Position numbers and translations under genes: made by a program. From NCBI RefSeq assembly GCF_001598855.1, contig NZ_BCZS01000012.1, positions 93,551 through 157,550 on the forward strand: a stretch of 64,000 nucleotides of DNA, written 5' to 3'. Positions 3,132 to 50,231 of this stretch are shown here, piece by piece. The notes under the pieces are model-generated. The model ran no database searches, was not told the DNA's origin, and saw nothing but the letters and a program-made list of their open reading frames with translations. Source of the DNA: Pluralibacter gergoviae ATCC 33028 = NBRC 105706. GTDB lineage: Bacteria; Pseudomonadota; Gammaproteobacteria; Enterobacterales; Enterobacteriaceae. Position 1 is the first letter of the stretch. The number at the start of each line of letters is the position of its first letter.

Positions 3132-4547
3132 TTACTCATCGTCATACTGAGGGCCCGCGTAATTATCAAAACGCGACCACTGCCCGTTAAAGGTCAGGCG
3201 CACCGTGCCGATAGGGCCGTTACGCTGCTTACCAATAATAATTTCGGCGATCCCCTTCAGGTCGCTGTTCTCGTGATAAACCTCATCGCGGTAGATGAAC
3301 ATGATAAGGTCTGCATCCTGCTCAATGGAGCCGGATTCACGCAGATCCGAGTTGACCGGCCGCTTGTCGGCGCGCTGCTCAAGGGAACGGTTAAGCTGCG
3401 ACAGGGCCACCACCGGCACCTGCAGCTCTTTCGCCAGCGCTTTGAGGGAGCGGGAAATCTCCGCGATCTCCAGGGTGCGGTTATCGGAGAGCGACGGCAC
3501 GCGCATCAGCTGCAGGTAGTCGATCATTATCAGACCGATGCCGCCGTGTTCGCGGGCGATGCGCCGGGCGCGGGAGCGCACTTCCGTCGGCGTCAGGCCG
3601 GAGGAGTCGTCGATATAGATATTGCGCTTCTCCAGCAGAATGCCCATGGTGCCGGAGATCCGCGCCCAATCCTCGTCGTCGAGCTGGCCGGTACGGATGC
3701 GGGTCTGATCCACCCGCGACAGGGAGGCGAGAGAACGCATCATAATCTGCTCGGAGGGCATCTCAAGACTGAAGATGAGTACCGGCTTATCCTGCAGCAT
3801 CGCCGCATTTTCAACGAGGTTCATCGCAAATGTCGTTTTCCCCATCGACGGACGGGCGGCGACGATGATCAGGTCCGACGGCTGGAGGCCGGCGGTTTTC
3901 TTGTTGAGATCGTCATAGCCGGTGTTCACGCCGGTCACGCCGTCGTGGGGCTGCTGGAACAGCTGCTCGATGCGGGCGACGGTGGCGTCCAGCACGTCGG
4001 CGATGTTCTTCGGGCCTTCATCCTTATTGGCGCGGCTTTCGGCAATTTTAAACACCCGCGACTCGGCGAGGTCGAGCAGATCTTCGCTGGTACGCCCCTG
4101 GGGATCGAAGCCAGCTTCGGCGATCTCGTTAGCCACCGAGATCATTTCGCGCACCACCGCGCGTTCGCGCACGATGTCCGCATAGGCCGTGATATTTGCT
4201 GCACTTGGCGTATTTTTTGACAGCTCGGCCAGATAGGCAAAACCGCCCACGCTATCGAGCTGCCCCTGGCGCTCCAGCGATTCGGCGAGGGTGATCAGGT
4301 CAATCGGGCTGCCCGACTCCTGCAGGCGCGCCATCTCGGTAAAGATATGGCGGTGCGGACGGGTGTAGAAATCGTCAGAGACCACGCGCTCGGCGACGTC
4401 GTCCCAGCGCTCGTTATCCAGCATCAAACCGCCCAACACCGACTGTTCCGCTTCAATCGAGTGCGGCGGGACCTTCAGACCGTCGACCTGAAAATCGCGT
4501 TCGCGGGGCTCAGCCTGCTGTTTGTTGAAGGGTTTATTTCCTGCCAT
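3132..4547 (-). CDS. dnaB: replicative DNA helicase DnaB
   Basis: 471 aa, full-length match to DnaB including Walker A (GKT) and C-terminal RecA-like domain. Confidence 0.97.
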   Translation of the reverse strand: MAGNKPFNKQQAEPRERDFQVDGLKVPPHSIEAEQSVLGGLMLDNERWDDVAERVVSDDFYTRPHRHIFTEMARLQESGSPIDLITLAESLERQGQLDSVGGFAYLAELSKNTPSAANITAYADIVRERAVVREMISVANEIAEAGFDPQGRTSEDLLDLAESRVFKIAESRANKDEGPKNIADVLDATVARIEQLFQQPHDGVTGVNTGYDDLNKKTAGLQPSDLIIVAARPSMGKTTFAMNLVENAAMLQDKPVLIFSLEMPSEQIMMRSLASLSRVDQTRIRTGQLDDEDWARISGTMGILLEKRNIYIDDSSGLTPTEVRSRARRIAREHGGIGLIMIDYLQLMRVPSLSDNRTLEIAEISRSLKALAKELQVPVVALSQLNRSLEQRADKRPVNSDLRESGSIEQDADLIMFIYRDEVYHENSDLKGIAEIIIGKQRNGPIGTVRLTFNGQWSRFDNYAGPQYDDE

Positions 4548-5608: not shown

Positions 5609-5639
5609 GGGCTTCCCGGAGGAAGCCCTTTCTTTTTTT
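5609..5639 (+). terminator. rho-independent terminator after qor (GGGCTTCC-CGGA-GGAAGCCC then TTTCTTTTTTT)
   Basis: GC hairpin plus T-run seen directly. Confidence 0.7.
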
Positions 5640-5755
5640 ATCGTTGGCTGTATGTAGGGTACAGCACGATGAATTCGTTATTTGGCTAATAATGACAGAT
5701 TTATTGCGCACCGCCTATCGGCTTGTTCTCAGGTTGTGACGCGCTCCGCAATACC

Positions 5756-35820: not shown

Positions 35821-36231
35821 CTACTCCCGCCGCAGCCGCTTCGAGTTACAGATCCACAGCGTCACCACCAGCAGCAGAATCGATCCGGAATACATCAGCA
35901 CGTCAACGGGCGACTGGTGATCGACGATAATCAGCCGCACAATGGCGGTGATGCCGATATAGACGAAATAGCGCAGCGGGAAGTGAAATCCCGACTGGAA
36001 ATACTTCACGATCAGGGCGATAAACTCGAAGTAGAGAAAGTAGACCACCAGCCCCTCGACCAGCTCAAACTTGCTGGTCTTTTCCGGCGCAAACAGGACG
36101 TCGGCGAGGTGCAGCGTCTCCTTACCGAGAAACACGACCAGGATTACGGCCAGGCACAGCAGCCCAAGGTTAAGCACAATCTGCAGAAGCGTTGAGATAA
36201 GCTCGACCAGCGGTCGTGGCAGGGAATTCAT
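35821..36231 (-). CDS. psiE: phosphate-starvation-inducible protein PsiE
   Basis: 136 aa, near-identical to E. coli PsiE. Confidence 0.93.
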
Positions 36232-36349
36232 GACGTCAGCTCCATTGTTAACATGGAGTGTTGTATAGCGCAGAAATGTGACGCAGATCTACATTTTTTA
36301 CTTATCTTTTGTGATGTTTTTATTGTCCGTTTATCCCGGGAGGAGAGCG

Positions 36350-36862
36350 ATGCTACAGATACGGCTCGCGACCGAAGAAGATGCCCCGCGGCTCAGCGCG
36401 ATGGGGAAAATCAGCTATCCGCACCACTTTGCCCACCTCTGGCACAGCCCGCAGGAACTTGCGGCTTTTGTCGAGAAAGAGTACGCGCCGGAGTCCATCG
36501 CCAGAACTATGACGCACGACGCCAGCCGCTGGCTGATCGCCACGCGCGACAGCGCTGACGCCGGCTTCGCGAAGTTCAGCTTTCAGCGTAGCGCTGAGCC
36601 GGGCGGCGTAACGGGAACCCTGCTGCACAAACTTTACCTGATGCCGGGCGCAACCGGGGCAGGATGCGGAGAGGCAATGATGAATGAGGTGATCCGCCAG
36701 GCAAAAGCGCACGGCGAACGCTACCTCTGGCTGGAAGTGCTGGCTGAAAATCCGCGCGCCAGGCGGTTTTACGAACGCCTGGGTATGACGCACCTCAGAG
36801 ACACGACCTTTGCCTCCGCTACGCAGGTTAGCGTGCTGCAGGTGCTGGGGATGAGGATTTGA
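36350..36862 (+). CDS. GNAT-family N-acetyltransferase (MLQIRLATEEDA start, GGGAGGAG RBS)
   Basis: Acetyl-CoA binding motif region (RFYERLGM); occupies the position of yjbEFGH in E. coli. Confidence 0.75.
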   Translation: MLQIRLATEEDAPRLSAMGKISYPHHFAHLWHSPQELAAFVEKEYAPESIARTMTHDASRWLIATRDSADAGFAKFSFQRSAEPGGVTGTLLHKLYLMPGATGAGCGEAMMNEVIRQAKAHGERYLWLEVLAENPRARRFYERLGMTHLRDTTFASATQVSVLQVLGMRI

Positions 36863-36916
36863 GGGCGAGAAGACAAAAAGCCCTTCTCACCGGGAAGGGC
36901 TTACTGTATTAGGCGA

Positions 36917-38566
<1,650 letters not shown>

Positions 38567-38809
38567 AACAATACTCTTTCTGGTGTGAGATTTGTGACCT
38601 TGGTCGATTGTAGCGCCTGAGATCGGGATTGTGATGATTTTTATATCATTGCCAGGGCGATACACCGTTATTCGTAAAATGCCCCGCAAAGTATAGTTGT
38701 TATAAGCGCCATTACTTCGTCTTATCTCTGCATGAAAAATCCGCATAACCGCAACATTGACAGCACACCGTATTAACCCGTATTTATTATGTACAACCTG
38801 CACTTACGC

Positions 38810-39060
38810 AGGCCAGAAGAGGCGCGTTGCCCAGGTACGGTGTTTGAGAAGCCGGTTCGACGAAAGCACCTGAGGGGGAGCAACGCCGAGGTGATTAAAC
38901 GTCCTGGCGCGTTAATCACCGGCTACAGGGGCTGAATCCCCTGGGCTGTCACCAGAAACGTTCCCAGTCGGGCGTTTCGCAAGGTGGAGCACTTCTGGGT
39001 GAATTCGTAGTTGTTAACTGCTCTGCGCCCACCCTGTTTTTCGCTCTTCCCTTGTGCCAT
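38810..39060 (+). ncRNA. lysine riboswitch (LYS element/L-box) in the lysC 5' leader
   Basis: Leader nearly identical to the E. coli lysC leader (GGCCAGAAGAGGCGCGTTGCCCA...CTGAGGGGG...GGGGCTGAATCCCCTGGG...GTCGGGCGTTTCGCAAG...GGAGCACTTCTGGGTGA). Confidence 0.85.
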
Positions 39061-39091
39061 GGCTGAATACTTGACACGAGGTTTTACACTA

Positions 39092-40453
39092 ATGACTACT
39101 GCTCTCTCCTCATTCGTCGTGGCCAAATTTGGCGGCACCAGCGTGGCCGATTATGACGCCATGAACCGCAGCGCCGACGTGGTGCTGGCCGACAGCGCCG
39201 TGCGCCTGGTGGTGCTCTCTGCGTCTGCGGGCGTCACCAACCTGCTGGTGGCACTCTCTGAAGGCCTGGAGGCCACCGAGCGCTTTGTGAAGCTCGATGC
39301 CCTGCGCAAGATTCAGTTCGATATTCTGGAGCGGATGCAGAACCCGCTGGTGATCCGCGAAGAGGTGGAGCGCCTGCTGGATAATATTACCACCCTTGCC
39401 GAAGCGGCCTCGCTGGCGACGTCTGCGGCGCTGACCGACGAGCTGGTCAGCCACGGGGAGCTGATGTCCACCCTGCTGTTTGTCGAGATCCTGCGCGAGC
39501 GCCGCGTGGAAGCGCAGTGGTTCGATGTGCGTAAAGTAATGCGCACCAACCACCAGTTTGGCCGCGCCGAACCGGACGTTCCCGCGCTGGCGGAGCTTGC
39601 CACCCAGCAGCTGGCGCCGCGCCTGGCAGAGAGCCTGGTGATCACCCAGGGCTTTATCGGCAGCGAAGATAAAGGCCGCACCACGACGCTGGGCCGCGGC
39701 GGCAGCGACTATACCGCCGCCCTGCTGGGTGAGGCCCTGCACGCCGGGCGGGTCGATATCTGGACCGACGTGCCCGGTATCTACACCACCGATCCGCGCA
39801 TTGTGCCCGCCGCCCGCCGCATCGACGTTATCGCCTTTGAAGAAGCCGCCGAGATGGCGACCTTCGGCGCCAAGGTACTGCATCCGGCTACCCTGCTGCC
39901 CGCCGTGCGCAGCGACATTCCGGTGTTCGTCGGCTCCAGCAAAGAGCCGAAAGCGGGCGGGACGCTGGTGTGCAATAAAACCGAGCAGCCGCCGCTGTTC
40001 CGCGCCCTGGCCCTGCGCCGCAAGCAGACGCTGCTGACCCTGCACAGTCTCAACATGTTGCATTCGCGCGGCTTTCTGGCGGAGGTGTTCGGCATTCTGG
40101 CGCGCCACAGCATCTCGGTTGACCTGATCACCACCTCGGAAGTGAGCGTCGCCCTGACGCTGGACACCACCGGCTCCACCTCCACCGCCGACACGCTGCT
40201 GACCCAGGCGCTGCTCACCGAGCTGTCGTCCCTGTGCCTGGTGGAAGTTGAGCAGGACCTGGCCCTGGTGGCGCTGATTGGCAACAATCTGGTCAACGCC
40301 CGCGGCGTCGGTAAAGAGGTGTTCGGCGTGCTGGATCCGTTTAATATCCGCATGATCTGCTACGGCGCATCCAGCCACAACCTCTGCTTCCTGGTGCCCG
40401 GCGGCGACGCCGAGCAGGTGGTGCAGAAGCTGCATCATAATTTGTTTGAATAA
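39092..40453 (+). CDS. lysC: lysine-sensitive aspartokinase III; true start at 39092
   Basis: Near-identical to E. coli LysC (VVAKFGGTSVADYDAMNRSA...); the track ORF extends into the riboswitch. Confidence 0.96.
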   Translation: MTTALSSFVVAKFGGTSVADYDAMNRSADVVLADSAVRLVVLSASAGVTNLLVALSEGLEATERFVKLDALRKIQFDILERMQNPLVIREEVERLLDNITTLAEAASLATSAALTDELVSHGELMSTLLFVEILRERRVEAQWFDVRKVMRTNHQFGRAEPDVPALAELATQQLAPRLAESLVITQGFIGSEDKGRTTTLGRGGSDYTAALLGEALHAGRVDIWTDVPGIYTTDPRIVPAARRIDVIAFEEAAEMATFGAKVLHPATLLPAVRSDIPVFVGSSKEPKAGGTLVCNKTEQPPLFRALALRRKQTLLTLHSLNMLHSRGFLAEVFGILARHSISVDLITTSEVSVALTLDTTGSTSTADTLLTQALLTELSSLCLVEVEQDLALVALIGNNLVNARGVGKEVFGVLDPFNIRMICYGASSHNLCFLVPGGDAEQVVQKLHHNLFE

Positions 40454-40481
40454 TATTTAGTGAAGACGGCCCGGAGCTACG

Positions 40482-41285
40482 CTACCGGGCCTTTTTATTT
40501 TGCAGAACGGTGTTCATCAATAGCCAGTCCAGCGCTCGGATGTCACCTTTGCGGCTGTCCGGTAGCGTCGACGGTGTCTCCCCCCGCACCAGTTCCTGCT
40601 GGATAAAAGCGTGCAGCTCCGGCATTCGCGCACCGTAATGCGCCTCCCCGGCGCGCTGCTTTTTCTCAAGCAGCAGAGAGATCTCCTCGCGCAGCGCTGC
40701 ATCCAGCTCACTTCCCGCCAGCAGATCGGCGAAACGCATAGGTGGAATACCTTTTCCCTCCTCGACCCAGCGCACTGCCAGCAGCGGACGCAGCACGTAG
40801 AAATACTTTTTCAGACGCACTTCGCTGCCCTGCAGATAGCCGCGAAAGTTTTTTCGCGCCATTGAGTAGTAATGCCAGCGAGCACGCAAGGGAGAGAACC
40901 ACAGCGGCACCTGCTGGCGTAACTGCCCTACGACCTCATCGTCCTGACGATAGACAATGGGCGATCGCAGCCATTCGATGAGCGTGGGGTTTGCCCCCTT
41001 CAGCAGTCCCAGCGCCTTGCGCCACTCCCAGCCGGAGACATCCAGCTCGTCGTCGATCGGCAGTTCAATAACGTCGCGCTGCGGTTCCACCCTCAGGTAC
41101 CATTCGGGGGCATGCACATAGATAAAGCGGACATCGTAGTCGCTATCCGGTGAAGCGAACCCCCAGCCCCTGCTGCCGGACTCGCAGGCGTAAAGAATGC
41201 GCACATCGTGTTGCTGTTCGATATCTCCGAGCTGCCGCAGCACGCGCTCGCGCATCGCGGTATCAACGCTGTTTAAGGTCATCAT
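40482..41285 (-). CDS. pol-beta-superfamily nucleotidyltransferase (COG3541/Nuc-transf-like), last gene of the RtcR-controlled operon
   Basis: CESGSRGWGFASPDSDYDV = G[GS]x9-13Dx[DE] NTase motif; start lies 3 nt after the rtcB stop. Confidence 0.75.
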   Translation of the reverse strand: MMTLNSVDTAMRERVLRQLGDIEQQHDVRILYACESGSRGWGFASPDSDYDVRFIYVHAPEWYLRVEPQRDVIELPIDDELDVSGWEWRKALGLLKGANPTLIEWLRSPIVYRQDDEVVGQLRQQVPLWFSPLRARWHYYSMARKNFRGYLQGSEVRLKKYFYVLRPLLAVRWVEEGKGIPPMRFADLLAGSELDAALREEISLLLEKKQRAGEAHYGARMPELHAFIQQELVRGETPSTLPDSRKGDIRALDWLLMNTVLQNKKAR

Positions 41286-41288
41286 TTA

Positions 41289-42515
41289 TTATCCTTTCAC
41301 GCACACTACCTGCCGTAGCGTATGTACAATCTCCACCAGCGATAACTGTGCCGCCATCACGGCATCGATATCTTTATAGGCCATCGGGATCTCGTCTATC
41401 ACCTCTGCGTCTTTGCGGCATTCAACGTGCGCCGTAGACCTGATCTGATCCGCAACGGTAAACTGTTTTTTTGCCGCGGTACGGCTCATTGTTCTGCCGG
41501 CGCCGTGGCTGCAGGAGCAGAAGCTCTCAGCATTTCCCAGCCCGCGCACGATAAAACTTTTCGCGCCCATTGAGCCGGGAATGATCCCCATCTGCCCTTT
41601 CTGCGCTGAAACCGCGCCTTTGCGGGTGATAAGTACCTCCTCGCCAAAGTGCGTCTCTTTTTGTACATAGTTGTGGTGGCAGTTAACCGCCTCCTGATGC
41701 GTGGTAAACGGTTTTGCCACTATAAGGGACAGCGCTGCCAGCACCCTGGACATCATGACCTCACGGTTGTGGCGGGCAAAGTCCTGAGCCCACTCAACCG
41801 CTTCAATATAATCATCATAGTGCCGGCTACCCTCGCGGAAATAGGCCAGATTGCAGTCCGGCAGGTTGGCAATATGTTGCTGCATATCTTTCTGCGCCAG
41901 CGTAATAAACAGGTTGCCGATGGCATTCCCTACGCCCCGCGATCCGCTGTGCAGCATGACCCAGACCTGCTGTTGCTCATCCAGGCAAACTTCAATGAAG
42001 TGGTTCCCGGTGCCGAGCGTCCCCAGATGTAAATAGTGATTAGTTTTCTGCAGTTGCGGGTATTTATCCGTCAGTTGCTTAAAACGCGGTGCCAGCACAG
42101 ACCAGTGTCCGTCTACGATTTCAGGCGGCGTATGCCAAGCGCCCTTATCGCGCCGGGAGCGCATATTTGTCCGCCCGTGCGGCACCACCGACTCAATGGC
42201 GCTGCGCAGGCCGCTAAGGTGGTCGGGCAGATCGCCTGCCGTTAGCGACGTGCGCACGGCAATCATGCCGCAGCCGATGTCCACGCCAACTGCGGCCGGG
42301 ATAATTGCGCCTTTAGTAGGAATAACGCTGCCAATAGTCGAGCCTTTTCCGAGATGCACATCAGGCATCACCGCCAGATGCTTAAAAATAAAGGGCATTT
42401 TTGCGGTATTAAGCAGTTGCTCCTGCGCTTTTGCATCGACCGGCACACCGCAGGTCCACATTTTTATCGGCGCGCCGCCTGGCGCACTCACTAACTGGAA
42501 TTGTTCTGTTTCCAT
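41289..42515 (-). CDS. rtcB: RNA-splicing ligase RtcB (3'-phosphate/5'-OH ligase)
   Basis: 408 aa, near-identical to E. coli RtcB, including the NHF metal-site region and the C-terminal CRKDAEVIDEIPMAYKDIDAVM. Confidence 0.95.
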   Translation of the reverse strand: METEQFQLVSAPGGAPIKMWTCGVPVDAKAQEQLLNTAKMPFIFKHLAVMPDVHLGKGSTIGSVIPTKGAIIPAAVGVDIGCGMIAVRTSLTAGDLPDHLSGLRSAIESVVPHGRTNMRSRRDKGAWHTPPEIVDGHWSVLAPRFKQLTDKYPQLQKTNHYLHLGTLGTGNHFIEVCLDEQQQVWVMLHSGSRGVGNAIGNLFITLAQKDMQQHIANLPDCNLAYFREGSRHYDDYIEAVEWAQDFARHNREVMMSRVLAALSLIVAKPFTTHQEAVNCHHNYVQKETHFGEEVLITRKGAVSAQKGQMGIIPGSMGAKSFIVRGLGNAESFCSCSHGAGRTMSRTAAKKQFTVADQIRSTAHVECRKDAEVIDEIPMAYKDIDAVMAAQLSLVEIVHTLRQVVCVKG

Positions 42516-42519
42516 TGCC

Positions 42520-43647
42520 CTATCCTTTAATGTTCACGAGGCCGTTCAATACCTGATCCAGGCCACCGAAAACGGAAATTTTGTCGATACGCTCTGCGAC
42601 TCTCTCAAGCGTCTCCAGTTCTTTAAGACGCAACGCCACGGGGTTGTTCTCCATCACCTTTGCGGTATTCAGCAAAGAGCGCGTCGCGGCCGTCTCTTCT
42701 CTTCGGCGAATAACATTTGCCTGCGCTGCCTTTTCAGCTTCGACCACTCTGGAGAGGATCGCTTTCATATCACCGGGCAGAACGATGTCCTTTACGCCAA
42801 GAGAAGCGATTTCGATACCGAATGCGGCCATTCGCGCCTTCACCTGAGCGCTGACGACCTCATCGATGAGCTGCTTGTCTTCCAGAAGTTCATCGAGCGT
42901 GCGGGTGCCTACTGCTTCCCGCAGCGCGAACTGCAGCTCGCGGTAGAGATATTCCAGCGGTTTTGCCAGTTGCTCGAAAACCTGCATAACGGCGCTATAG
43001 CGCCAGTTTGCCGCCAGGTTCAGGCGCAGGTTTACCTTATCTTTTGTCAGAATCTCCTGACCGCTAACCTCCAGCGCCTGCAGACGGGTGTCTACCACCT
43101 CCGCCTCGACCAGATGATTAACCTGCCACCAGCCCGTCACGCCTGGCGGCAGCAGAGGCTGCGTCTTACCGTCAATTTTCAGCACACCCACGTGCCAGGC
43201 CGGTACCGACACGGCCAGTATGGCGTCCCGGCCTTTTACCGGCTCATTAGCCCGCGGCTGCAGCACCGCACTCATTACTTCGGCGGGTACCCGGGCCTCT
43301 CGGCTATCCATCCGCACCAGCGTGAGTGCATCACCGGCCTGCCAGTACAGTCGACGGGTTAACGGCGGGATAATCTCCTGCAATACGCCGTGCAGATAGA
43401 GGGCGCCGGCTTCGTTTTCCGTCATGTCAGCCTGCAGACAGTAGCGCTCTACCCACTCCGGCTGGAAGCGGCGCAGATAGTCAGCCAGTGAACGTTCAAC
43501 GGCATTGCCATCGGCATTCACGGTCAGGACCTGCGGCGCATTAAACCACGGCAGGCGGTGCTCGCCGGCTTCCAGCACCTTAACGTAGTCTCCGTTTCTG
43601 GAAAGAAGGCCAAGCTGGCCTTTTTTTAGGGTCACTTTTTTCATCAT
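42520..43647 (-). CDS. SPFH/band-7 domain protein without an N-terminal transmembrane segment; first gene of the operon, 4 nt upstream of rtcB
   Basis: C-terminal SPFH signature (TKDKVNLRLNLAANWRY...LGVKDIVLPGDMKAILSRVVEAEKAAQANVIRRRE); N-terminal ~180 aa not recognised; no hydrophobic anchor. Confidence 0.7.
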   Translation of the reverse strand: MMKKVTLKKGQLGLLSRNGDYVKVLEAGEHRLPWFNAPQVLTVNADGNAVERSLADYLRRFQPEWVERYCLQADMTENEAGALYLHGVLQEIIPPLTRRLYWQAGDALTLVRMDSREARVPAEVMSAVLQPRANEPVKGRDAILAVSVPAWHVGVLKIDGKTQPLLPPGVTGWWQVNHLVEAEVVDTRLQALEVSGQEILTKDKVNLRLNLAANWRYSAVMQVFEQLAKPLEYLYRELQFALREAVGTRTLDELLEDKQLIDEVVSAQVKARMAAFGIEIASLGVKDIVLPGDMKAILSRVVEAEKAAQANVIRRREETAATRSLLNTAKVMENNPVALRLKELETLERVAERIDKISVFGGLDQVLNGLVNIKG

Positions 43648-43940
43648 TTCTCTGATCCTTTTTCTGGACAGGCGCGGGTGCCGTACGGAGCGGCAGGGGA
43701 AGACCTTTTCGCCTGTCGCCCGGTATCTTTACCGGCTGCCTGCTTTGGGGACGCCCAACTGCGCGCTGCCCCGGTATTGCTCTGTAAACCATTTATCACT
43801 GAGAAGAGTGAGTCGGGAATCGAACCCTGTTCAGGTGTCAGCGGCTGACGGAACACGTCGGAAATACAGCCAGTGCTGTTTCGGAAGTGCCGGCGGGGTA
43901 CAAACCCCTGCGCTTTCAGCGTATTGACCCATACGTTAAA

Positions 43941-43955
43941 GCCAGATACGTGCCA
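43941..43955 (-). promoter_or_regulatory. candidate sigma54 promoter TGGCAC-GTATC-TGGC (minus strand) about 290 nt upstream of the SPFH-rtcB-NTase operon
   Basis: GG-N10-GC spacing matches the -24/-12 consensus; RtcR is a sigma54 activator by established knowledge. Confidence 0.5.
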
Positions 43956-44093
43956 GAAGCGGAAGATCACGTTTTTTTTGCTTTCAATTAACTGATAAAT
44001 AAAGAATTAAAAATTTAAATGCTGGGTTGCTATTGTTTGAAAAATGCAAATTAACTATCTTTTAATATCGCTATTTATCCCACAGGATAAGAT

Positions 44094-45677
44094 ATGAAAA
44101 AGCGTCGAGTAGTGATTGGCGTACTGGGTACGGTACTGGATAAGCGTGGAAAACGAGCGAATCGCCACCGCAAGTGGCGCCCTACGGTCGGGTTATGCCT
44201 GCAGCCCGATTTCTCTATTGACCGCCTGGAGTTGATTCACCAGCCTCGTGACGCCGGACTGGCGAAGCAGCTTGCTGAAGATATAACTCAGGTATCTGCC
44301 GGTACTCATGTCAGGCCGCACGCCATTGCGCTGCAAAATCCGTGGGATTTCGAGGAGGTGTACGCCGCCTTTCTCGATTTCGCCATCCACTATCCGTTCG
44401 ATACTGAAAATGAAGAGTATCTGGTACATATCACCACCGGTACGCACGTCGCTCAGATCTGCTGGTTCCTGCTGACGGAGGCCCGCTATCTGCCAGCCAC
44501 CCTGCTGCAAACCGGTCCCGCGCCCAAAGATTCAACACAGGAAGCAACAGTCGCCGGCGTCTGCTCGATGATCGACCTGGACTTAAGCCGCTATGCCACC
44601 CTCACAAGCCGCTTTCAGCGCGAGCAGCAGCAGTCGGTCTCTTTTCTTAAAGCGGGAATTGAGACACGAAATCCCACTTTTAACAGGCTTATTGATCAGA
44701 TTGAGCGAGTCGCACTCCGTTCCTCCGCTCCCATACTGTTGACGGGCCCGACTGGTTCGGGAAAATCCTTTCTCGCTCAGCGTATTTTTATGCTGCGCCA
44801 AAGCCGCCATCTTGTTGCGGGAAAATTCGTGGCGGTTAACTGCGCGACGCTACGCGGGGATAATGCCATGTCGACGCTATTTGGCCATGTAAAGGGGGCG
44901 TTCACCGGAGCGCTGTCGGCCAGAAGCGGTTTGCTTAAAGAGGCCAACGGCGGCGTACTTTTTCTTGACGAAATAGCGGAACTGGGACTCGACGAGCAGG
45001 CGATGCTCCTCAAGGCCATCGAGGAGAAAACCTTCTTACCCTTCGGTTCTGATAACGAGGTAAAAAGCGATTTTCAACTGATTGCCGGGACACATCGCGA
45101 TCTGCGCCAGTGGGTCAAAGAGGGGCGCTTTCGTGAGGATCTTTACGCGCGAATTAATCTCTGGAGTTTCGCACTGCCGGGACTGGCCCAAAGACGGGAA
45201 GATATTGCGCCCAACGTCGAATATGAGCTTCAGCGATTTTGCCATGAGCAACAAAATCAGGTGCGCTTTGATAAAGAGGCAAGGGAACGCTTTCTGGCTT
45301 TTTCCAGTTCCTCGCAGGCCAGCTGGCGCGGTAATTTCCGCGAACTTGGCTCCTCAATAACCAGAATGGCAACGTTAGCTGAGCAGGGGCGAATTACCGT
45401 AGCGCTCGTTGAGGAAGAGATTATGCGCCTACGTGAAAGCTGGTATGAAGAGTCGCGGGAACCGCTAATGGAACAGGAGATCGACCTCTTCGATCGCCAG
45501 CAGCTTGAAACGGTACTTGAGGTCTGCCGCCGTAGCGAATCGCTGTCGCAGGCTGGAAGAGAACTGTTTGCCGTTTCAAGATTGAAAAAAGCCAATCCGA
45601 ATGATGCCGATCGCCTGCGTAAGTATCTGGCACGCTTTGGTTTCAGCTGGGAAACTATTCGCGATAGGCATTTTTAG
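44094..45677 (+). CDS. rtcR: sigma54-dependent transcriptional regulator RtcR (CARF + AAA+ + HTH)
   Basis: 527 aa, collinear with E. coli RtcR (GPTGSGKSF Walker A; GAFTGA; C-terminal DADRLRKYLARFG). Confidence 0.93.
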   Translation: MKKRRVVIGVLGTVLDKRGKRANRHRKWRPTVGLCLQPDFSIDRLELIHQPRDAGLAKQLAEDITQVSAGTHVRPHAIALQNPWDFEEVYAAFLDFAIHYPFDTENEEYLVHITTGTHVAQICWFLLTEARYLPATLLQTGPAPKDSTQEATVAGVCSMIDLDLSRYATLTSRFQREQQQSVSFLKAGIETRNPTFNRLIDQIERVALRSSAPILLTGPTGSGKSFLAQRIFMLRQSRHLVAGKFVAVNCATLRGDNAMSTLFGHVKGAFTGALSARSGLLKEANGGVLFLDEIAELGLDEQAMLLKAIEEKTFLPFGSDNEVKSDFQLIAGTHRDLRQWVKEGRFREDLYARINLWSFALPGLAQRREDIAPNVEYELQRFCHEQQNQVRFDKEARERFLAFSSSSQASWRGNFRELGSSITRMATLAEQGRITVALVEEEIMRLRESWYEESREPLMEQEIDLFDRQQLETVLEVCRRSESLSQAGRELFAVSRLKKANPNDADRLRKYLARFGFSWETIRDRHF

Positions 45678-45715
45678 TTTGAATTAGACAGCGCCACGCG
45701 ATAAACAATACCTAA

Positions 45716-45741
45716 GGCCGGGCTCGAACCCGGCTTTTTTA
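45716..45741 (+). terminator. rho-independent terminator after rtcR (GGCCGGGCTCGAACCCGGC then TTTTTTAT)
   Basis: Hairpin plus T-run seen directly. Confidence 0.7.
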
Positions 45742-45783
45742 TAAAAACACAACAACAACCTTCACAATCGCAAGGATATCCCT

Positions 45784-46707
45784 ATGTTATCGACGCTGAC
45801 GCGGCTGTTCCCGCTCTGGGCGCTGCTGCTCTCCGTACTGGCGTACTTTACGCCCGCCACGTTTACTCCCATTGGCCCCTGGGTCGCCACGCTGCTGATG
45901 CTGATTATGTTCGGCATGGGCGTGCATCTGAAAATTGACGACTTTAAGCGGGTGTTGTCGCGCCCGGCGCCTGTCCTGGCCGGCACCTTTCTGCACTATC
46001 TGGTGATGCCTTTCGCGGCGTGGCTGCTGGCGCTGATTTTTCATATGCCGCCTGAACTGTCGGCGGGGATGGTGCTGGTGGGCAGCGTTGCCAGCGGCAC
46101 GGCCTCCAACGTGATGATCTATCTGGCGAAGGGTGACGTAGCGCTGTCGGTGACGATTTCGTCGGTCTCTACTCTGGTGGGCGTCATCGCCACGCCGCTG
46201 CTGACCCGCCTGTACGTCGACGCCCACATTCAGGTGGACGTCTGGGGGATGCTGCTGAGCATTATGCAGATTGTAGTGATCCCGATTGGGTTAGGGCTTA
46301 TTGTCCACCACCTGCTGCCGCGCGTGGTAAAAGCCGTGGAACCGTATCTGCCGGCGTTTTCGATGGTCTGCATTCTGGCCATTATCAGCGCGGTGGTGGC
46401 CGGTTCGGCGTCGCATATCGCCTCCGTGGGCCTGATGGTGATTGTGGCGGTGATCCTGCACAACGGTATTGGCCTGCTGAGCGGCTACTGGGGCGGGCGG
46501 CTGTTCGGCTTCGACGAATCCACCTGCCGCACGCTGGCGATTGAGGTAGGCATGCAGAACTCCGGCCTTGCCGCTGCGCTGGGGAAAATCTACTTCGGCC
46601 CGCTCGCCGCCCTGCCCGGCGCGCTATTCTCGGTGTGGCACAATCTGTCTGGCTCGCTGCTGGCGGGATACTGGTCGGGGAAGGCAGTCAGTAAAGACAA
46701 AACCTGA
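45784..46707 (+). CDS. bile acid:sodium symporter (BASS) family transporter
   Basis: 307 aa, about 9-10 TM, BASS family pattern. Confidence 0.8.
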
Positions 46708-46751
46708 GCGTGAACCTTCGCCGAACGAGCCGGGTCGTTCGGCAACGCACG

Positions 46752-47066
46752 CTAAATGCCGTCGAGAAGGAAATCTATCGCCGCTTTAATTTGCGGACGG
46801 TAGTGAGAAGCATCGCAAAACACTGGCCCCAGCACGCTAACAGGGATACTCGCCATCTCATGCGTCATGACGGCATATTCCTTGCCGTCACTCAGCCTGA
46901 TTAACGGGATCAGGCGTTCAGGACGCTGGCTTGCGGGATACTTTTCTAAAGGTAAAAGTGGAATCGCAATATGTCGATTGAGCTGTCCGATGATGTCGCT
47001 CGTCACGTCAATCAGTAAAGGATAAACAGCACTTTTTCCGGTATTTCCATATACGGTAAATTGCAT
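46752..47066 (-). CDS. ccdB: CcdB-family gyrase-poison toxin
   Basis: MQFTVYGNTGKSAVYPLLIDVTSDII... aligns with F-plasmid CcdB ([25 protein letters not shown], C-terminal WGI/DGI). Confidence 0.85.
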   Translation of the reverse strand: MQFTVYGNTGKSAVYPLLIDVTSDIIGQLNRHIAIPLLPLEKYPASQRPERLIPLIRLSDGKEYAVMTHEMASIPVSVLGPVFCDASHYRPQIKAAIDFLLDGI

Positions 47067-47068
47067 CA

Positions 47069-47305
47069 CTAAAATGTCCTGTAGTCATCGCTGAAGCCGC
47101 CATGCTCATCGTGGAATTGATTGAGCGCCTCAATAGCCGCGCTGTTTTCTACCTGCCATTTTTTTGTTTCGTACTGGCTCACTTCGGCACTGAGCGCTGC
47201 AGCCAATACAGCACTGAGATTAATACCGGCCTCACGCGCACGCGCAAGAAGATTACGATCGATGGTCATAGTAACGCTCTGCGTTGTTCGCTGTTTTATT
47301 GACAT
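47069..47305 (-). CDS. ccdA: CcdA-family antitoxin, overlapping the ccdB start
   Basis: MSIKQRTTQSVTMTIDRNLL... aligns with F-plasmid CcdA (MKQRITVTVDSDSYQLL...); typical TA gene overlap. Confidence 0.85.
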   Translation of the reverse strand: MSIKQRTTQSVTMTIDRNLLARAREAGINLSAVLAAALSAEVSQYETKKWQVENSAAIEALNQFHDEHGGFSDDYRTF

Positions 47306-47497
47306 ACTTTCCGCCCCGCTCGTTTATTATGCACAATAATATAAACGAACATTTGCACGGGGATCCACACGAGTCTGTATAATCTCCTGCGGCGATAAAG
47401 GCAACTGAAAGTCGGTGCCATAATTTCTGCACGCGATCCTCATTCCAGTTCTGATTGTACGATACACTCAGCATTCATCCTTCAGGAGACTCCCATC

Positions 47498-47770
47498 ATG
47501 GCCATCCCACGCCTCACCCAGCAGGACATGACCGAGCAGGAAAAGCGCGAGCTGAAAACCCGGCTCGACCGCGCCAGAATCGCCCACGGCCGGGTACTGA
47601 CCAACGCGGAAACCAATCAGATCAAGAAGGCCTACATTGACGCGCTGATGGCCGAGCGCGAAGCGGAAGCGAAGAAGGCCCGCCAGCTGAAGAAGAAGCA
47701 GGCCTATAAAACGGATAAGGAAGCGACGTTCTCGTGGTCAGCCAGCGCGCCGGTGCGCGGCAGGCGCTAG
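47498..47770 (+). CDS. yjbD: DUF3811 protein YjbD
   Basis: Resembles E. coli YjbD (MALPRITQKEMTEREQRELKT...). Confidence 0.8.
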   Translation: MAIPRLTQQDMTEQEKRELKTRLDRARIAHGRVLTNAETNQIKKAYIDALMAEREAEAKKARQLKKKQAYKTDKEATFSWSASAPVRGRR

Positions 47771-48109
47771 TTAGCCGACCTGAAGAGTGACCGGTTTGCC
47801 GAGCCGGGCGAGCATCAGGACCAGCGCATCGAGGGTAAATTTGCTGGTCTTCTGATTCACCACGTCGGAAACGCGCGGCCGGGAAATGTGCAGCCTGCGG
47901 GCAACCTCCGCCTGCTTGAGATGATGCTCGTCAATCCAGCCGGCGATCTCGTTCATCAGCTGGCGCTTAAGGTTAAGCAGTTGCGCGGCTTCCTGCTCTG
48001 CCTGCTGCTTAAGCTGCTGCGCCTCATCGGCAGCAACGCCGAGATCGGCAAAAATATTGCCGTCCGCCGGGGTGATGTGGGCGATCTTACCGTCAGTCAT
48101 CTGTTTCAT
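47771..48109 (-). CDS. XRE-family HTH protein, HigA-like antitoxin fold (orphan; no adjacent toxin ORF)
   Basis: NIFADLG N-motif and C-terminal HTH (LKQAEVARRLHISRPRVSDVVNQKTSKFTLDALVLMLARLG). Confidence 0.7.
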   Translation of the reverse strand: MKQMTDGKIAHITPADGNIFADLGVAADEAQQLKQQAEQEAAQLLNLKRQLMNEIAGWIDEHHLKQAEVARRLHISRPRVSDVVNQKTSKFTLDALVLMLARLGKPVTLQVG

Positions 48110-48318
48110 GGCCTACCCTGCAGTTTGTTAATACCGAGCGAGACGAAGCATATTACATTTTTGTATAAAATTTTATACCACAATCAGTCCTCGAACTGCC
48201 AGCACGTTACGCGCGATAAAAAATAGGGCAAAAGCGTGAGATGCTGTGAGCGGCCTGCAGAAGACATGCGCGATACGGCGCCGGGACAGAAGACCCCGGC
48301 GCGAAAAGAGAGTAAACC

Positions 48319-49191
48319 TTAGCGTCCCTTCTTCTTCCTGCCCGGGGAGGTAAAGCGCTTGCGCGACGCCAGCTCGGCGGGGGTTTTCGCCATATTCTTG
48401 CCGCCGCCGGCGGGCTTCTTCGGCGCGCCCGCTTTCGGCTTCGCCTTCGCTTTCGCCGGTTTCGCCTCGGACGAGGAGCCTTCAATCAGCTTAAACAGTT
48501 CAATCAGCTCGTCGTCGGTCAGATCGCGCCACTCGCCGACGGGCAGCCCCTTCAGGCTGACGTTCATGATGCGGGTGCGCTCAAGCTTCGTCACCTCATA
48601 GCCGAAGTGCTCGCACATACGGCGTATCTGCCTGTTGAGGCCCTGTACCAGGGTAATGCGGAAGGCGAACGGCGCCTCTTTCTTTACCTTACATTTCTTC
48701 GTTACCGTGCCGAGGATCGGCACCCCGGCGCCCATGCCGCGAATAAAGTCGTCGGTTACCGGCTTATTAACCGTCACCACGTACTCTTTCTCGTGATTGT
48801 TGCCGGCGCGCAGGATCTTGTTCACCAGATCGCCGTGGTTGGTGAGAAAAATCAGCCCCTGCGACTCTTTATCGAGGCGGCCGATGGGGAAGACGCGCTT
48901 GCTGTGGTTAACAAAATCGACGATGTTGTCGCGCTCGCCGTCTTCGGTAGTGCTGACGATGCCGACCGGTTTATTGAGGGCGATCAGCACCAGGTCTTCC
49001 GCATCGCGCGGCTCAATCAGCTGCCCGTTAACCTTTACCTCGTCGCCGGGCATCACCTGGTCGCCGACGCTGGCGCGCTTGCCGTTAATAAAGACGTTTC
49101 CCTGCTCTATATAGCGGTCGGCGTCGCGGCGGGAGCAGATGCCGCTCTCGCTAATGTACTTGTTTAAACGGGTGGATTGGGCTGGCAGCAT
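48319..49191 (-). CDS. rluF: 23S rRNA pseudouridine(2604) synthase RluF ([17 protein letters not shown] start)
   Basis: Near-identical to E. coli RluF including the lysine-rich C-terminal tail. Confidence 0.93.
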
Positions 49192-49418
49192 AAGGTCTCC
49201 TGTCAATTGCCGCGCAATATACCGCACATTGCGGGTGAGAAAAAACAGCCATTTTTACCCATCCGGGGAATAAATGTGATGCAAAGCGATGTTTTGCATA
49301 TAAATGACTGAAAATCAGGATGATGACCCGGCTATCCGGGGCTATACCTGAAAGCCGTTGTGGGATATGGTCAGGACAGCGCAATACTTTCTGCAGCCCC
49401 ACGCCGAGGAGATTTAAG

Positions 49419-50231
49419 ATGATCAACCGCGACACTCAGCTGTGCATGTCGCTTGCCGGACGCCCCGGCAATTTTGGTACCCGCTTTCACAATTATCTGT
49501 ACGAGAAGCTGGGCCTCAACTTTATCTACAAAGCCTTTACGACCCAGGATATCGGGGCGGCGGTCAAAGGCGTCAGGGCGCTGGGCATCCGCGGCTGCGC
49601 GGTGTCGATGCCCTTCAAAGAGAGCTGTATGCCGTTTCTGGACGCTATCGATCCGTCGGCGAAGGTCATTGACTCCGTGAACACCATCGTCAACGACGGC
49701 GGCCATCTGACGGGCTTCAATACCGACTATATTGCGGTGAAAAGCCTGATTGACAGCCACCGGCTTGATACGGCTGCCCGGGTGATGATCCGCGGCAGCG
49801 GCGGCATGGGTAAGGCGGTGATCGCCGCCTTCCGCGACGCGGGATTTAAGAACGTCATTATTGCGGCGCGCAATGAGCAGAGCGGTACGGCGCTGGCGCG
49901 CCAGTACGGCTTCCAGTGGCAGCCGCTGCCGGAGGGTATTCAGGCGGATATCCTGGTGAACGTCACGCCCATCGGCATGGCCGGCGGCAGCGAGAGCGAC
50001 GCGCTCTCCTTCAATGAGGAAATGGTCGCGGCGGCGGGCGTGGTGTTCGACGTGATTGCCCTGCCGGCGGAAACGCCGGTCATCAGGCTGGCGCAGAAGC
50101 TGAATAAAAAGACCATCAGTGGCGCGGAGGTCATCGCCCTGCAGGCCGTCGAGCAGTTTGCGATGTACACCGGCGTGCGTCCGGATGACGCGCTGATCGC
50201 CGAAGCTGCCGCCTTTGCCCGCGCGGGCTAA
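49419..50231 (+). CDS. shikimate 5-dehydrogenase-family (AroE/YdiB-like) oxidoreductase; ATG at 49419 with GAGGAG RBS
   Basis: Family-level similarity only; occupies the pepE position of E. coli. Confidence 0.7.
   Translation: MINRDTQLCMSLAGRPGNFGTRFHNYLYEKLGLNFIYKAFTTQDIGAAVKGVRALGIRGCAVSMPFKESCMPFLDAIDPSAKVIDSVNTIVNDGGHLTGFNTDYIAVKSLIDSHRLDTAARVMIRGSGGMGKAVIAAFRDAGFKNVIIAARNEQSGTALARQYGFQWQPLPEGIQADILVNVTPIGMAGGSESDALSFNEEMVAAAGVVFDVIALPAETPVIRLAQKLNKKTISGAEVIALQAVEQFAMYTGVRPDDALIAEAAAFARAG

Follow-up and report, generated by a model that had tools for sequence, protein, structure and literature searches.

The 64,000-nt stretch of Pluralibacter gergoviae ATCC 33028 (= NBRC 105706) analysed here (contig NZ_BCZS01000012.1, positions 93,551 to 157,550; hereafter the window) contains a putative rtc RNA-repair locus. 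In this locus the regulatory gene rtcR is divergent from three genes, which encode a Band-7 protein, the RNA ligase RtcB and the nucleotidyltransferase RlaP, and a predicted structured leader RNA precedes the Band-7 gene. The four genes, in window coordinates, are:

44094–45677, plus strand: rtcR, sigma-54 activator of the CARF-AAA+ type, 527 aa (open reading frame (ORF) list, Pfam, NCBIfam, PADLOC)
42520–43647, minus strand: soluble, stomatin-like Band-7/SPFH protein, 375 aa (ORF list, Pfam)
41289–42515, minus strand: rtcB, 3′-phosphate/5′-OH RNA ligase, 408 aa (ORF list, Pfam PF01139)
40482–41285, minus strand: rlaP, PF10127 nucleotidyltransferase of the pol-beta superfamily, 267 aa (ORF list, Pfam)

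The ORF list reproduced exactly the coordinates and strands of an earlier reading made from the letters alone (the sequence-only reading), which had also described the divergent arrangement and the tight packing correctly. Band-7 and rtcB are separated by 4 nt (TAG-GGCA-ATG), and rtcB and rlaP by 3 nt (TAA-TAA-ATG). At both junctions an AAGGA Shine-Dalgarno sequence lies within the 3′ end of the preceding gene. No internal promoter or terminator signal was found on the operon strand.

Searches with hidden Markov models gave Band_7, RtcB, PF10127 and RtcR, in agreement with the families that the sequence-only reading had assigned to the products. RtcR matched the NCBIfam equivalog NF038308 (818 bits; cut-off 650) and Pfam PF06956 and Sigma54_activat (PF00158), as an RtcR with CARF, AAA+ sigma-54-interaction and HTH regions would. 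It also matched the RtcR model of PADLOC, which had no match for Band-7, RtcB or RlaP. RtcB matched PF01139 (E = 2e-129) and was 72% identical to Escherichia coli RtcB and 76–80% identical to Band-7-linked RtcBs, hence nearer to the latter. All 11 E. coli positions checked were kept (D75, C78, N167, H168, H185, R189, H281, K299, H337, R341 and R345), which we take to be residues of metal binding and guanylylation.

RlaP matched PF10127 (E = 2e-97; 326 bits, cut-off 23), the present Pfam name of which is 'RlaP, RNA repair pathway DNA polymerase beta family'. Among 18 homologs the motif ESGSR-WGF-S--SD-D-RF was invariant or nearly so, and the GS...DxD motif with a downstream Asp, the catalytic carboxylates, was invariant. 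No PDB entry was matched by sequence search. According to Carruthers, Fatma and Huang (bioRxiv 2025; PMC12776372), the protein was named by Burroughs and Aravind (NAR 2016) after its linkage to RNA ligases. These authors found that Pseudomonas RlaP adds one or two nucleoside monophosphates to RNA 3′-OH ends and prefers mimics of broken tRNAs (PMC12776372). The idea that the nucleotidyltransferase modifies RNA ends for repair, put forward from the sequence, agrees with this later biochemistry.

The Band-7 protein, 99% identical to a P. gergoviae protein, matched Band_7 (PF01145; E = 3e-28) over residues 147–318 of 375. It contained no hydrophobic span (the 19-residue Kyte-Doolittle mean peaked at 1.34), which bore out the claim that it has no membrane anchor. 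Its predicted structure, with a predicted local distance difference test score (pLDDT) of 87.8, consisted of two N-terminal beta modules (residues 1–140), an SPFH domain (142–288) and long C-terminal helices (290–355). The 140 N-terminal residues were predicted as soluble beta modules at the place where stomatins have a membrane hairpin or transmembrane anchor. The best structural matches of the model were stomatin, prohibitin, HflK/C, erlin and flotillin, all of them cage-forming; the major vault protein was a weaker match with a longer alignment. As judged from a consensus, the sequence motif with which the SPFH domain begins recurs in residues of the N-terminal modules. We read these modules as partial duplications of the SPFH domain, not as a known RNA-binding fold. 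The protein thus has an SPFH domain followed by oligomerisation helices like the stomatin-type scaffolds, but is without their membrane anchor. By analogy with the 16-mers of its relatives stomatin and HflK/C, it may assemble into a ring or cage, and it may bind RNA.

Longer Band-7 proteins of about 520 aa were found in Providencia, Gilliamella, Pseudomonas soli and a metagenomic enterobacterial contig (L010 6001–7521; L025 3304–4869; L032 5998–7518; L091 834–2402; numbers with L denote the loci compared). In these proteins the region of the N-terminal beta modules is duplicated once more.

An SPFH protein within the rtc locus of P. aeruginosa, PaFlo8, was deleted from PA14 in a 2026 study and gave no phenotype in generic assays. 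It is the sole Band-7 knockout. The sequence-only reading was right that the combination, Band-7 especially, had no experimental characterisation.

The absence of RtcA and Rsr, also claimed there, was confirmed within the window. No RtcA was found in the 64 kb with E. coli RtcA as tblastn query (E <= 1e-5), which detected RtcA in 15 related loci, and the ORF list and Pfam gave no TROVE-domain Rsr ORF between rtcR and lysC, the gene convergent with the operon.

The intergenic region between rtcR and Band-7 is 446 nt long. The promoter motif and the leader elements predicted in it are:

43941–43955, minus strand: sigma-54-type (−24/−12) promoter motif TGGCACGTATCTGGC (motif match and conservation)
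43842–43928, minus strand: 5′ domain of the leader, a three-way junction (covariation) of H1, GCUGA (43916–43920) paired with UCAGC (43844–43848); H2, a GGGG/CCCC hairpin; and H3, a long bulged hairpin
43813–43829, minus strand: T-arm-like hairpin C-A-GGG UUCGAUU CCC-G-A (conservation and stem covariation)
43796–43811, minus strand: hairpin P5, UCACU-CUUCUC-AGUGA, directly 3′ of the T-arm (read from the sequence)
43747–43772, minus strand: hairpin P6, GGGG...CCCC with the tip GCGC-AGUUGG-GCGU (read from the sequence)
43667–43744, minus strand: 3′ domain P7, a long hairpin in two parts, with its end about 20 nt 5′ of the Band-7 start (covariation)

The motif TGGCACGTATCTGGC sits 308 nt 5′ of the Band-7 ATG and faces the operon. 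It was the single match to the sigma-54-type motif in the window. One match per window is not statistically special (at least one in 37 of 100 shuffles), so the promoter was called from its position and conservation. The motif was kept in 13 of 13 enterobacterial-type loci, at −298 to −364. In Pluralibacter, Klebsiella and Citrobacter the DNA from the promoter to the start codon was far more conserved than the AT-rich DNA 5′ of the promoter. The predicted promoter would transcribe a structured leader RNA of about 290 nt 5′ of Band-7.

Folding of the single leader sequence was uninformative (z = −0.85), and the structural claims were therefore drawn from covariation. On an alignment of 11 enterobacterial-type sequences (A5), the 28 pairs of the 5′ domain were 93.5% paired. 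Of these pairs, 17 showed compensatory changes; shuffles gave 6.3 ± 1.7 and slid controls no more than 8. An alignment of 21 sequences had 23 compensatory pairs out of 28 (12.6 ± 1.8 in shuffles); it was fitted to a covariance model and is hence biased toward the structure. With the covariance model built from the 5′ domain (R1), this domain was located in Dechloromonas, Azonexus, Pseudomonas, Accumulibacter and other loci at the expected place, 3′ of the promoter and 5′ of the tRNA-like genes. The domain matched no Rfam family.

Two loci (L012 9607–9715; L028 9961–10069) also had weak R1 matches (E 0.03–0.17) within the coding sequence of rtcA, the relative position being the same in both. 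These are probably due to chance in GC-rich sequence.

For P7, 23 pairs were 92.6% paired on alignment A9, and 16 of them were compensatory (7.8 ± 1.9 in shuffles). Like the 5′ domain, P7 is absent from Rfam. A covariance model of P7 (R2) found a match beyond its training set in Gilliamella only, and P7 is thus confined to Enterobacterales and Gilliamella. With the filters off, R2 gave only insignificant matches (E 2–3) at the expected place in Pseudomonas-type leaders. A 3′ domain in common with Pseudomonas, considered for a short sequence resemblance in the Pseudomonas sp. 21 locus (L008), was dropped because R2 was not found there.

The core of the T-arm, GGUUCRAYUCC, was kept in all 13 enterobacterial-type leaders, varying only between G and A at position 6 and between U and C at position 8. 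Its stem covaries (GGG/CCC versus AGG/CCU), and five perfect pairs are formed in Mangrovibacter, Lonsdalea, Providencia and L091. In the middle part of the leader RNAalifold returned the T-arm only; the rest does not align across lineages. P5 recurred with other stems (UUUCAU/AUGAAA in Klebsiella) and a P6-like GGGG..CCCC hairpin recurred in the per-sequence folds of most relatives. Both hairpins were absent from the minimum free energy fold of the window sequence. The GG in the loop of P6 varies among relatives, and P6 is therefore not a proven D-arm. We conclude that the predicted leader is, as judged from its covariation, a genuine structured RNA.

In Lonsdalea and Superficieibacter (L007 5741–5822; L006 5754–5838), two pairings are open to the strand immediately 3′ of the T-arm (UAUCG and UUCGC, respectively): with a segment upstream it can form an acceptor-like stem, and with one downstream it can form P5. 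This may be a structural switch, or else what is left of tandem tRNA units. As hypotheses only, an acceptor-like stem may be drawn round the T-arm (GCGAA/UUCGC in Superficieibacter and Mangrovibacter; UGAUA/UAUCG in Lonsdalea), and the leader may be given a YrlA-like order of T-arm, acceptor-like hairpin and mini D-arm with a UGGU loop.

The position of the T-arm is that of tandem tRNA-like genes in other lineages. Wang et al. (bioRxiv 10.1101/312249) stated, after a prediction of 2016, that some bacteria encode RtcB beside Band-7 and a predicted b7a-tRNA ('band 7-associated tRNA'), which bears a strong likeness to real tRNA. It was without experimental validation as of 2018 (bioRxiv 10.1101/312249), and no later validation was found in the literature. 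In most non-enterobacterial loci ARAGORN detected a tRNA-like gene, or two, 250–430 nt upstream of Band-7 and in its orientation. They were often directly abutting pairs, and their anticodon loops were often of 6 or 8 nt. As a rule these leaders contained two T-loop motifs 70–75 nt apart, with the promoter at −510 to −590; enterobacterial-type leaders had just one such motif, about −175 to −221.

In L008 the first tRNA-like unit scored 50.8 bits with the Rfam tRNA model. The Rfam YrlA model (cut-off 69) reached 33 bits over positions 5614–5665, which span the T-arm of unit 1 through the D-arm of unit 2. The two abutting units thus mimic the permuted tRNA-like domain of Salmonella Y RNA.

No tRNA was detected by ARAGORN in the window or in seven enterobacterial loci. 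The Rfam models of tRNA, YrlA and Y RNA had no match in 36000–50000 at E <= 1. Those of tRNA and YrlA had none on the 321-nt leader at E <= 10, where chance hits alone appeared, and neither YrlA nor YrlB matched the other enterobacterial leaders. Because neither program recognised a tRNA or YrlA, the kinship of the leader with the b7a-tRNA is drawn from its position, the T-arm and the shared 5′ domain. On these grounds we conclude that the leader would be homologous in position and 5′ domain to the b7a-tRNA leaders, with the tRNA-like part reduced to the T-arm. As part of the reading given below, it probably descends, in degenerate form, from the tandem band-7-associated tRNAs that occupy this place in other proteobacteria.

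Large arrays of ordinary-looking tRNA genes, up to 24 in a row, were seen directly 5′ of the band-7-associated tRNA-like gene and Band-7 in several genomes with no RtcR in the flank (L059 1533–4746; L038 1687–4714; L029 1332–2406; L042 4420–5406; L057 3370–4009 and 7184–7426; L009 4145–4705; L030 2901–3697). A connection of tRNA arrays with the Band-7 module may thus exist.

The distribution of the genes was surveyed by tblastn in 80 species-representative genomes with a Band-7 homolog, with RtcA as an additional query. The exact RtcB sequence occurred in 34 blocks of the assembly collection. At all places shown the order was an SBF-family transporter gene, rtcR, Band-7, RtcB, RlaP, lysC and pgi. 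Cedecea neteri carried the identical three-gene operon at the same chromosomal site. The order of divergent rtcR, Band-7, RtcB and RlaP, usually followed by rtcA, was found in Pseudomonas, Burkholderia, Dechloromonas, Azonexus, Chitiniphilus, Acidovorax, Delftia and others. Providencia, Gilliamella and P. soli had the longer Band-7 followed by RtcB, and in Methylomicrobium, Cellvibrio and Methylobacter RtcB preceded Band-7. In total, Band-7 orthologs adjoined RtcB in about 35 loci. Cyanobacteria and others had Band-7 with other partners. Where the homolog lay away from RtcB, the next gene encoded an AAA ATPase (two loci, L041 7198–8316 and L042 7177–8238) or a DEAD-box helicase with an MrfA Zn-binding domain (L071 7224–9881).

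According to this census the three-gene content is widespread, and the only special trait of the gene content here is the lack of rtcA. The non-canonical and novel content claimed by the sequence-only reading was therefore not upheld. P. gergoviae commonly has its rtc genes in this arrangement, which is also present in Cedecea neteri, the same order with rtcA appended is widespread in Pseudomonas, Burkholderia and beta-proteobacteria, and papers that cite the comparative genomics of 2016 indicate that such systems were already described then.

At the same chromosomal site, rtcR, the leader, an intact Band-7 and an intact RlaP were present without rtcB in Citrobacter, Klebsiella michiganensis, K. 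oxytoca and Superficieibacter. Lonsdalea, Mangrovibacter, another genome labelled P. gergoviae and a Cedecea-like contig also lacked rtcB there. Band-7 and rtcB share a 9-nt 3′ end, AAAGGATA(A/G), which comprises the codons of the C-terminal Lys-Gly, the stop codon and the Shine-Dalgarno sequence of the next gene. The direct repeats taken as the sites of rtcB loss were AAAGGATAA. The stretches compared for AAAGGATA(A/G) were:

42520–42528 and 41289–41297, minus strand: direct repeats at the ends of Band-7 and rtcB in the window
4105–4145 and 5335–5375 in L090: compared stretches
4105–4145 in L092: compared stretch

To judge from their sequence, the junctions without rtcB fit exactly what a deletion between the 9-nt direct repeats would leave. 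With such repeats flanking rtcB, a precise loss of the gene could recur. The structured leader of about 290 nt with a lone tRNA-like T-arm, and the precise loss of the ligase gene in relatives, had not been noted before. The sequence-only reading missed the leader RNA, the position of the promoter, the tandem tRNA-like genes that other lineages have there and the loss of rtcB.

The locus is close to the Band-7/b7a-tRNA/RtcB/RlaP systems predicted by Burroughs and Aravind (NAR 2016), such as the P. aeruginosa rtc locus (rtcR, PaFlo8, rtcB, rlaP, rtcA). Both have a divergent RtcR, a sigma-54 promoter, the Band-7/RtcB/RlaP order and a membrane-less Band-7, and the products are 60% (Band-7), 76% (RtcB) and 57% (RlaP) identical to those of Pseudomonas sp. 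21. The leaders of both are long and structured, with the 5′ three-way-junction domain in common. On the other hand, the Pseudomonas-type locus has rtcA after rlaP, which P. gergoviae does not have. Its leader, of about 510–590 nt, contains two tRNA-like genes detectable by ARAGORN, whereas that of P. gergoviae, of about 290 nt, contains a single T-arm and small hairpins, together with the enterobacterial-specific P7. The gap between Band-7 and rtcB is 50–900 nt in the Pseudomonas-type systems, compared with 4 nt here. Because it has neither a recognisable b7a-tRNA nor RtcA, we filed the P. gergoviae locus as a reduced variant of this class and not as a plain member. The abstract of Burroughs and Aravind of 2016 reportedly describes SPFH/Band-7 scaffolds with a novel tRNA-like molecule.

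The rtcR/rtcBA locus of E. coli is likewise divergent, with the promoter TGGCAC-N5-T(T/G)GC in both species, and its RtcR and RtcB are 62% and 72% identical to those of P. gergoviae. It has rtcA, but not Band-7, RlaP or a long leader, and lies at a different chromosomal site; its promoter motif is 40 nt from rtcB, compared with 308 nt from Band-7 here. A megablast search of 5,426 E. coli genomes, which detects DNA identity of roughly 85% or more, found nothing that matched the locus region. The rsr-yrlBA-rtcBA locus of Salmonella is also controlled by RtcR, and like the present one places a putative scaffold protein and a structured RNA with tRNA-like features before rtcB. The order of T-arm, hairpin and further hairpins in the leader recalls the permuted tRNA-like domain of YrlA. 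P. gergoviae differs in having no match to Rsr/TROVE, YrlA or YrlB, and has Band-7 in the place of Ro60.

The operon ends 28 nt from the convergent lysC, and one hairpin is common to the two transcription units:

40468–40501, plus strand: intrinsic terminator of lysC, GGCCCGG-N10-CCGGGCC-TTTTTATTTT (read from the sequence)

It overlaps rlaP by that gene's stop codon and the eight codons before it, and marks where the operon ends. The composition of the locus resembled that of its flanks. Two further features were seen in the neighbourhood. A lysine riboswitch (RF00168, 100 bits) lies at 38809–39002 on the plus strand, 5′ of lysC, as expected for this gene. A toxin-antitoxin pair of the ccdA/ccdB type lies at 46752–47305 on the minus strand, just past the SBF-family transporter gene that adjoins rtcR; it was found in P. 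gergoviae contigs and not at the same position in the Citrobacter and Klebsiella loci.

We propose, with a probability of about 75%, that this is the rtc RNA-repair locus of P. gergoviae, a reduced member of the Band-7/RtcB/RlaP class, and that it works by the following scheme. Nucleases would cut tRNAs (or rRNA) and leave 2′,3′-cyclic-phosphate and 5′-OH ends. RtcR, by analogy with that of Salmonella, would bind the tRNA fragments through its CARF domain, oligomerise and fire the promoter at 43941–43955. For the Salmonella protein, activation by 5′ tRNA halves ending in cyclic phosphate was reported by Hughes et al. 2020 (PMC7790460). A single transcript would contain the structured leader (5′ junction, T-arm, two small hairpins and long 3′ hairpin) followed by the translationally coupled Band-7, RtcB and RlaP. 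RtcB would then reseal cyclic-phosphate or 3′-phosphate ends to 5′-OH ends, and RlaP would rebuild trimmed 3′ ends; the two enzymes may cooperate. The membrane-less Band-7 might form a soluble ring or cage that scaffolds or sequesters RNA and enzymes, probably with the leader RNA.

Several observations weigh against this scheme. The leader could not be taken as a b7a-tRNA or YrlA, both of which were rejected on the negative ARAGORN and Rfam results. The N-terminal domain of Band-7 showed no known RNA-binding fold. The products of RlaP have 3′-OH ends and are not substrates for RtcB, a mismatch raised by the authors themselves (PMC12776372). RtcA is required for induction in Salmonella (PMC7790460), yet is absent from the window. 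Band-7 and RlaP are kept without rtcB in relatives, which suggests that the module need not act through RtcB. Finally, co-transcription and induction of the operon and processing of the leader are what we infer for the proposed scheme.

The loss of rtcB raises the alternative of a module under RtcR control, made up of Band-7, RlaP and the leader and sufficient in itself, that does not ligate, but for example tags broken RNA 3′ ends and sequesters or triages the fragments in a stomatin-like cage, with rtcB as an optional passenger. This is possible but not probable. It is supported by the several enterobacterial genera in which everything but rtcB is intact, by the unfitness of the RlaP products for RtcB, and by the AAA ATPases or DEAD-box helicase that adjoin Band-7 in place of RtcB in other phyla. 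Outside Enterobacterales, however, Band-7 adjoins RtcB in most of the sampled lineages, the genomes without rtcB at this site may carry it elsewhere, and the 4-nt and 3-nt gaps in the window favour co-expression with RtcB. A different doubt concerns the leader, which might be only a cis-acting 5′ untranslated region for mRNA stability, processing or translation, its T-arm being a leftover or a processing handle for RNase P, RNase Z or TruB. The T-loop core GGUUCRAYUCC, kept in 13 of 13 leaders despite about 40% divergence elsewhere, points rather to a specific ligand, and the 5′ domain is kept with covariation from enterobacteria to beta-proteobacteria. In addition, Band-7 has complete tRNA-like genes beside it also in loci that lack RtcR and its promoter. 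A purely cis-acting leader appears rather unlikely, although there is no terminator between it and Band-7, it stops about 20 nt before the start codon and leaves the AAGGA Shine-Dalgarno sequence free, its tRNA-like part has shrunk in enterobacteria to one hairpin matched by no tRNA or YrlA model, and P7 is lineage-specific.

We consider it improbable that the locus is mainly an anti-phage or anti-toxin conflict island and not one of housekeeping RNA repair. PADLOC includes CARF regulators of the RtcR type, and large tRNA arrays lie just upstream in some related loci, as in phage-host tRNA conflicts. Against this, Band-7, RtcB and RlaP matched no PADLOC model, and one conserved site between lysC and the SBF-family transporter gene in several genera, with flank-like composition, suggested vertical inheritance.

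Beyond the proposed repair scheme, a more speculative view, which we regard as unlikely, takes the leader as an uncatalogued structured RNA whose 5′ domain occurs from enterobacteria to beta-proteobacteria, always before b7a-tRNA-like elements. It would be the RNA that goes with a soluble Band-7 cage like those of vaults or stomatins. The enterobacterial unit would have shed the anticodon arm, RtcA and often RtcB, and would be a ligase-independent device for broken RNA ends and no classical repair operon.

The gene content as such is already covered by the literature. The conserved 5′ domain of the leader is a candidate for a new Rfam RNA family. The enterobacteria provide natural near-isogenic variants at one site, with rtcB in P. 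gergoviae and Cedecea and without it in Citrobacter, Klebsiella and other Pluralibacter and Cedecea. All of these variants carry the compact leader, and their hosts are genetically tractable. They would allow three questions to be asked: the role of the scaffold and the RNA, the need for the ligase, and the inducibility of RtcR without RtcA.

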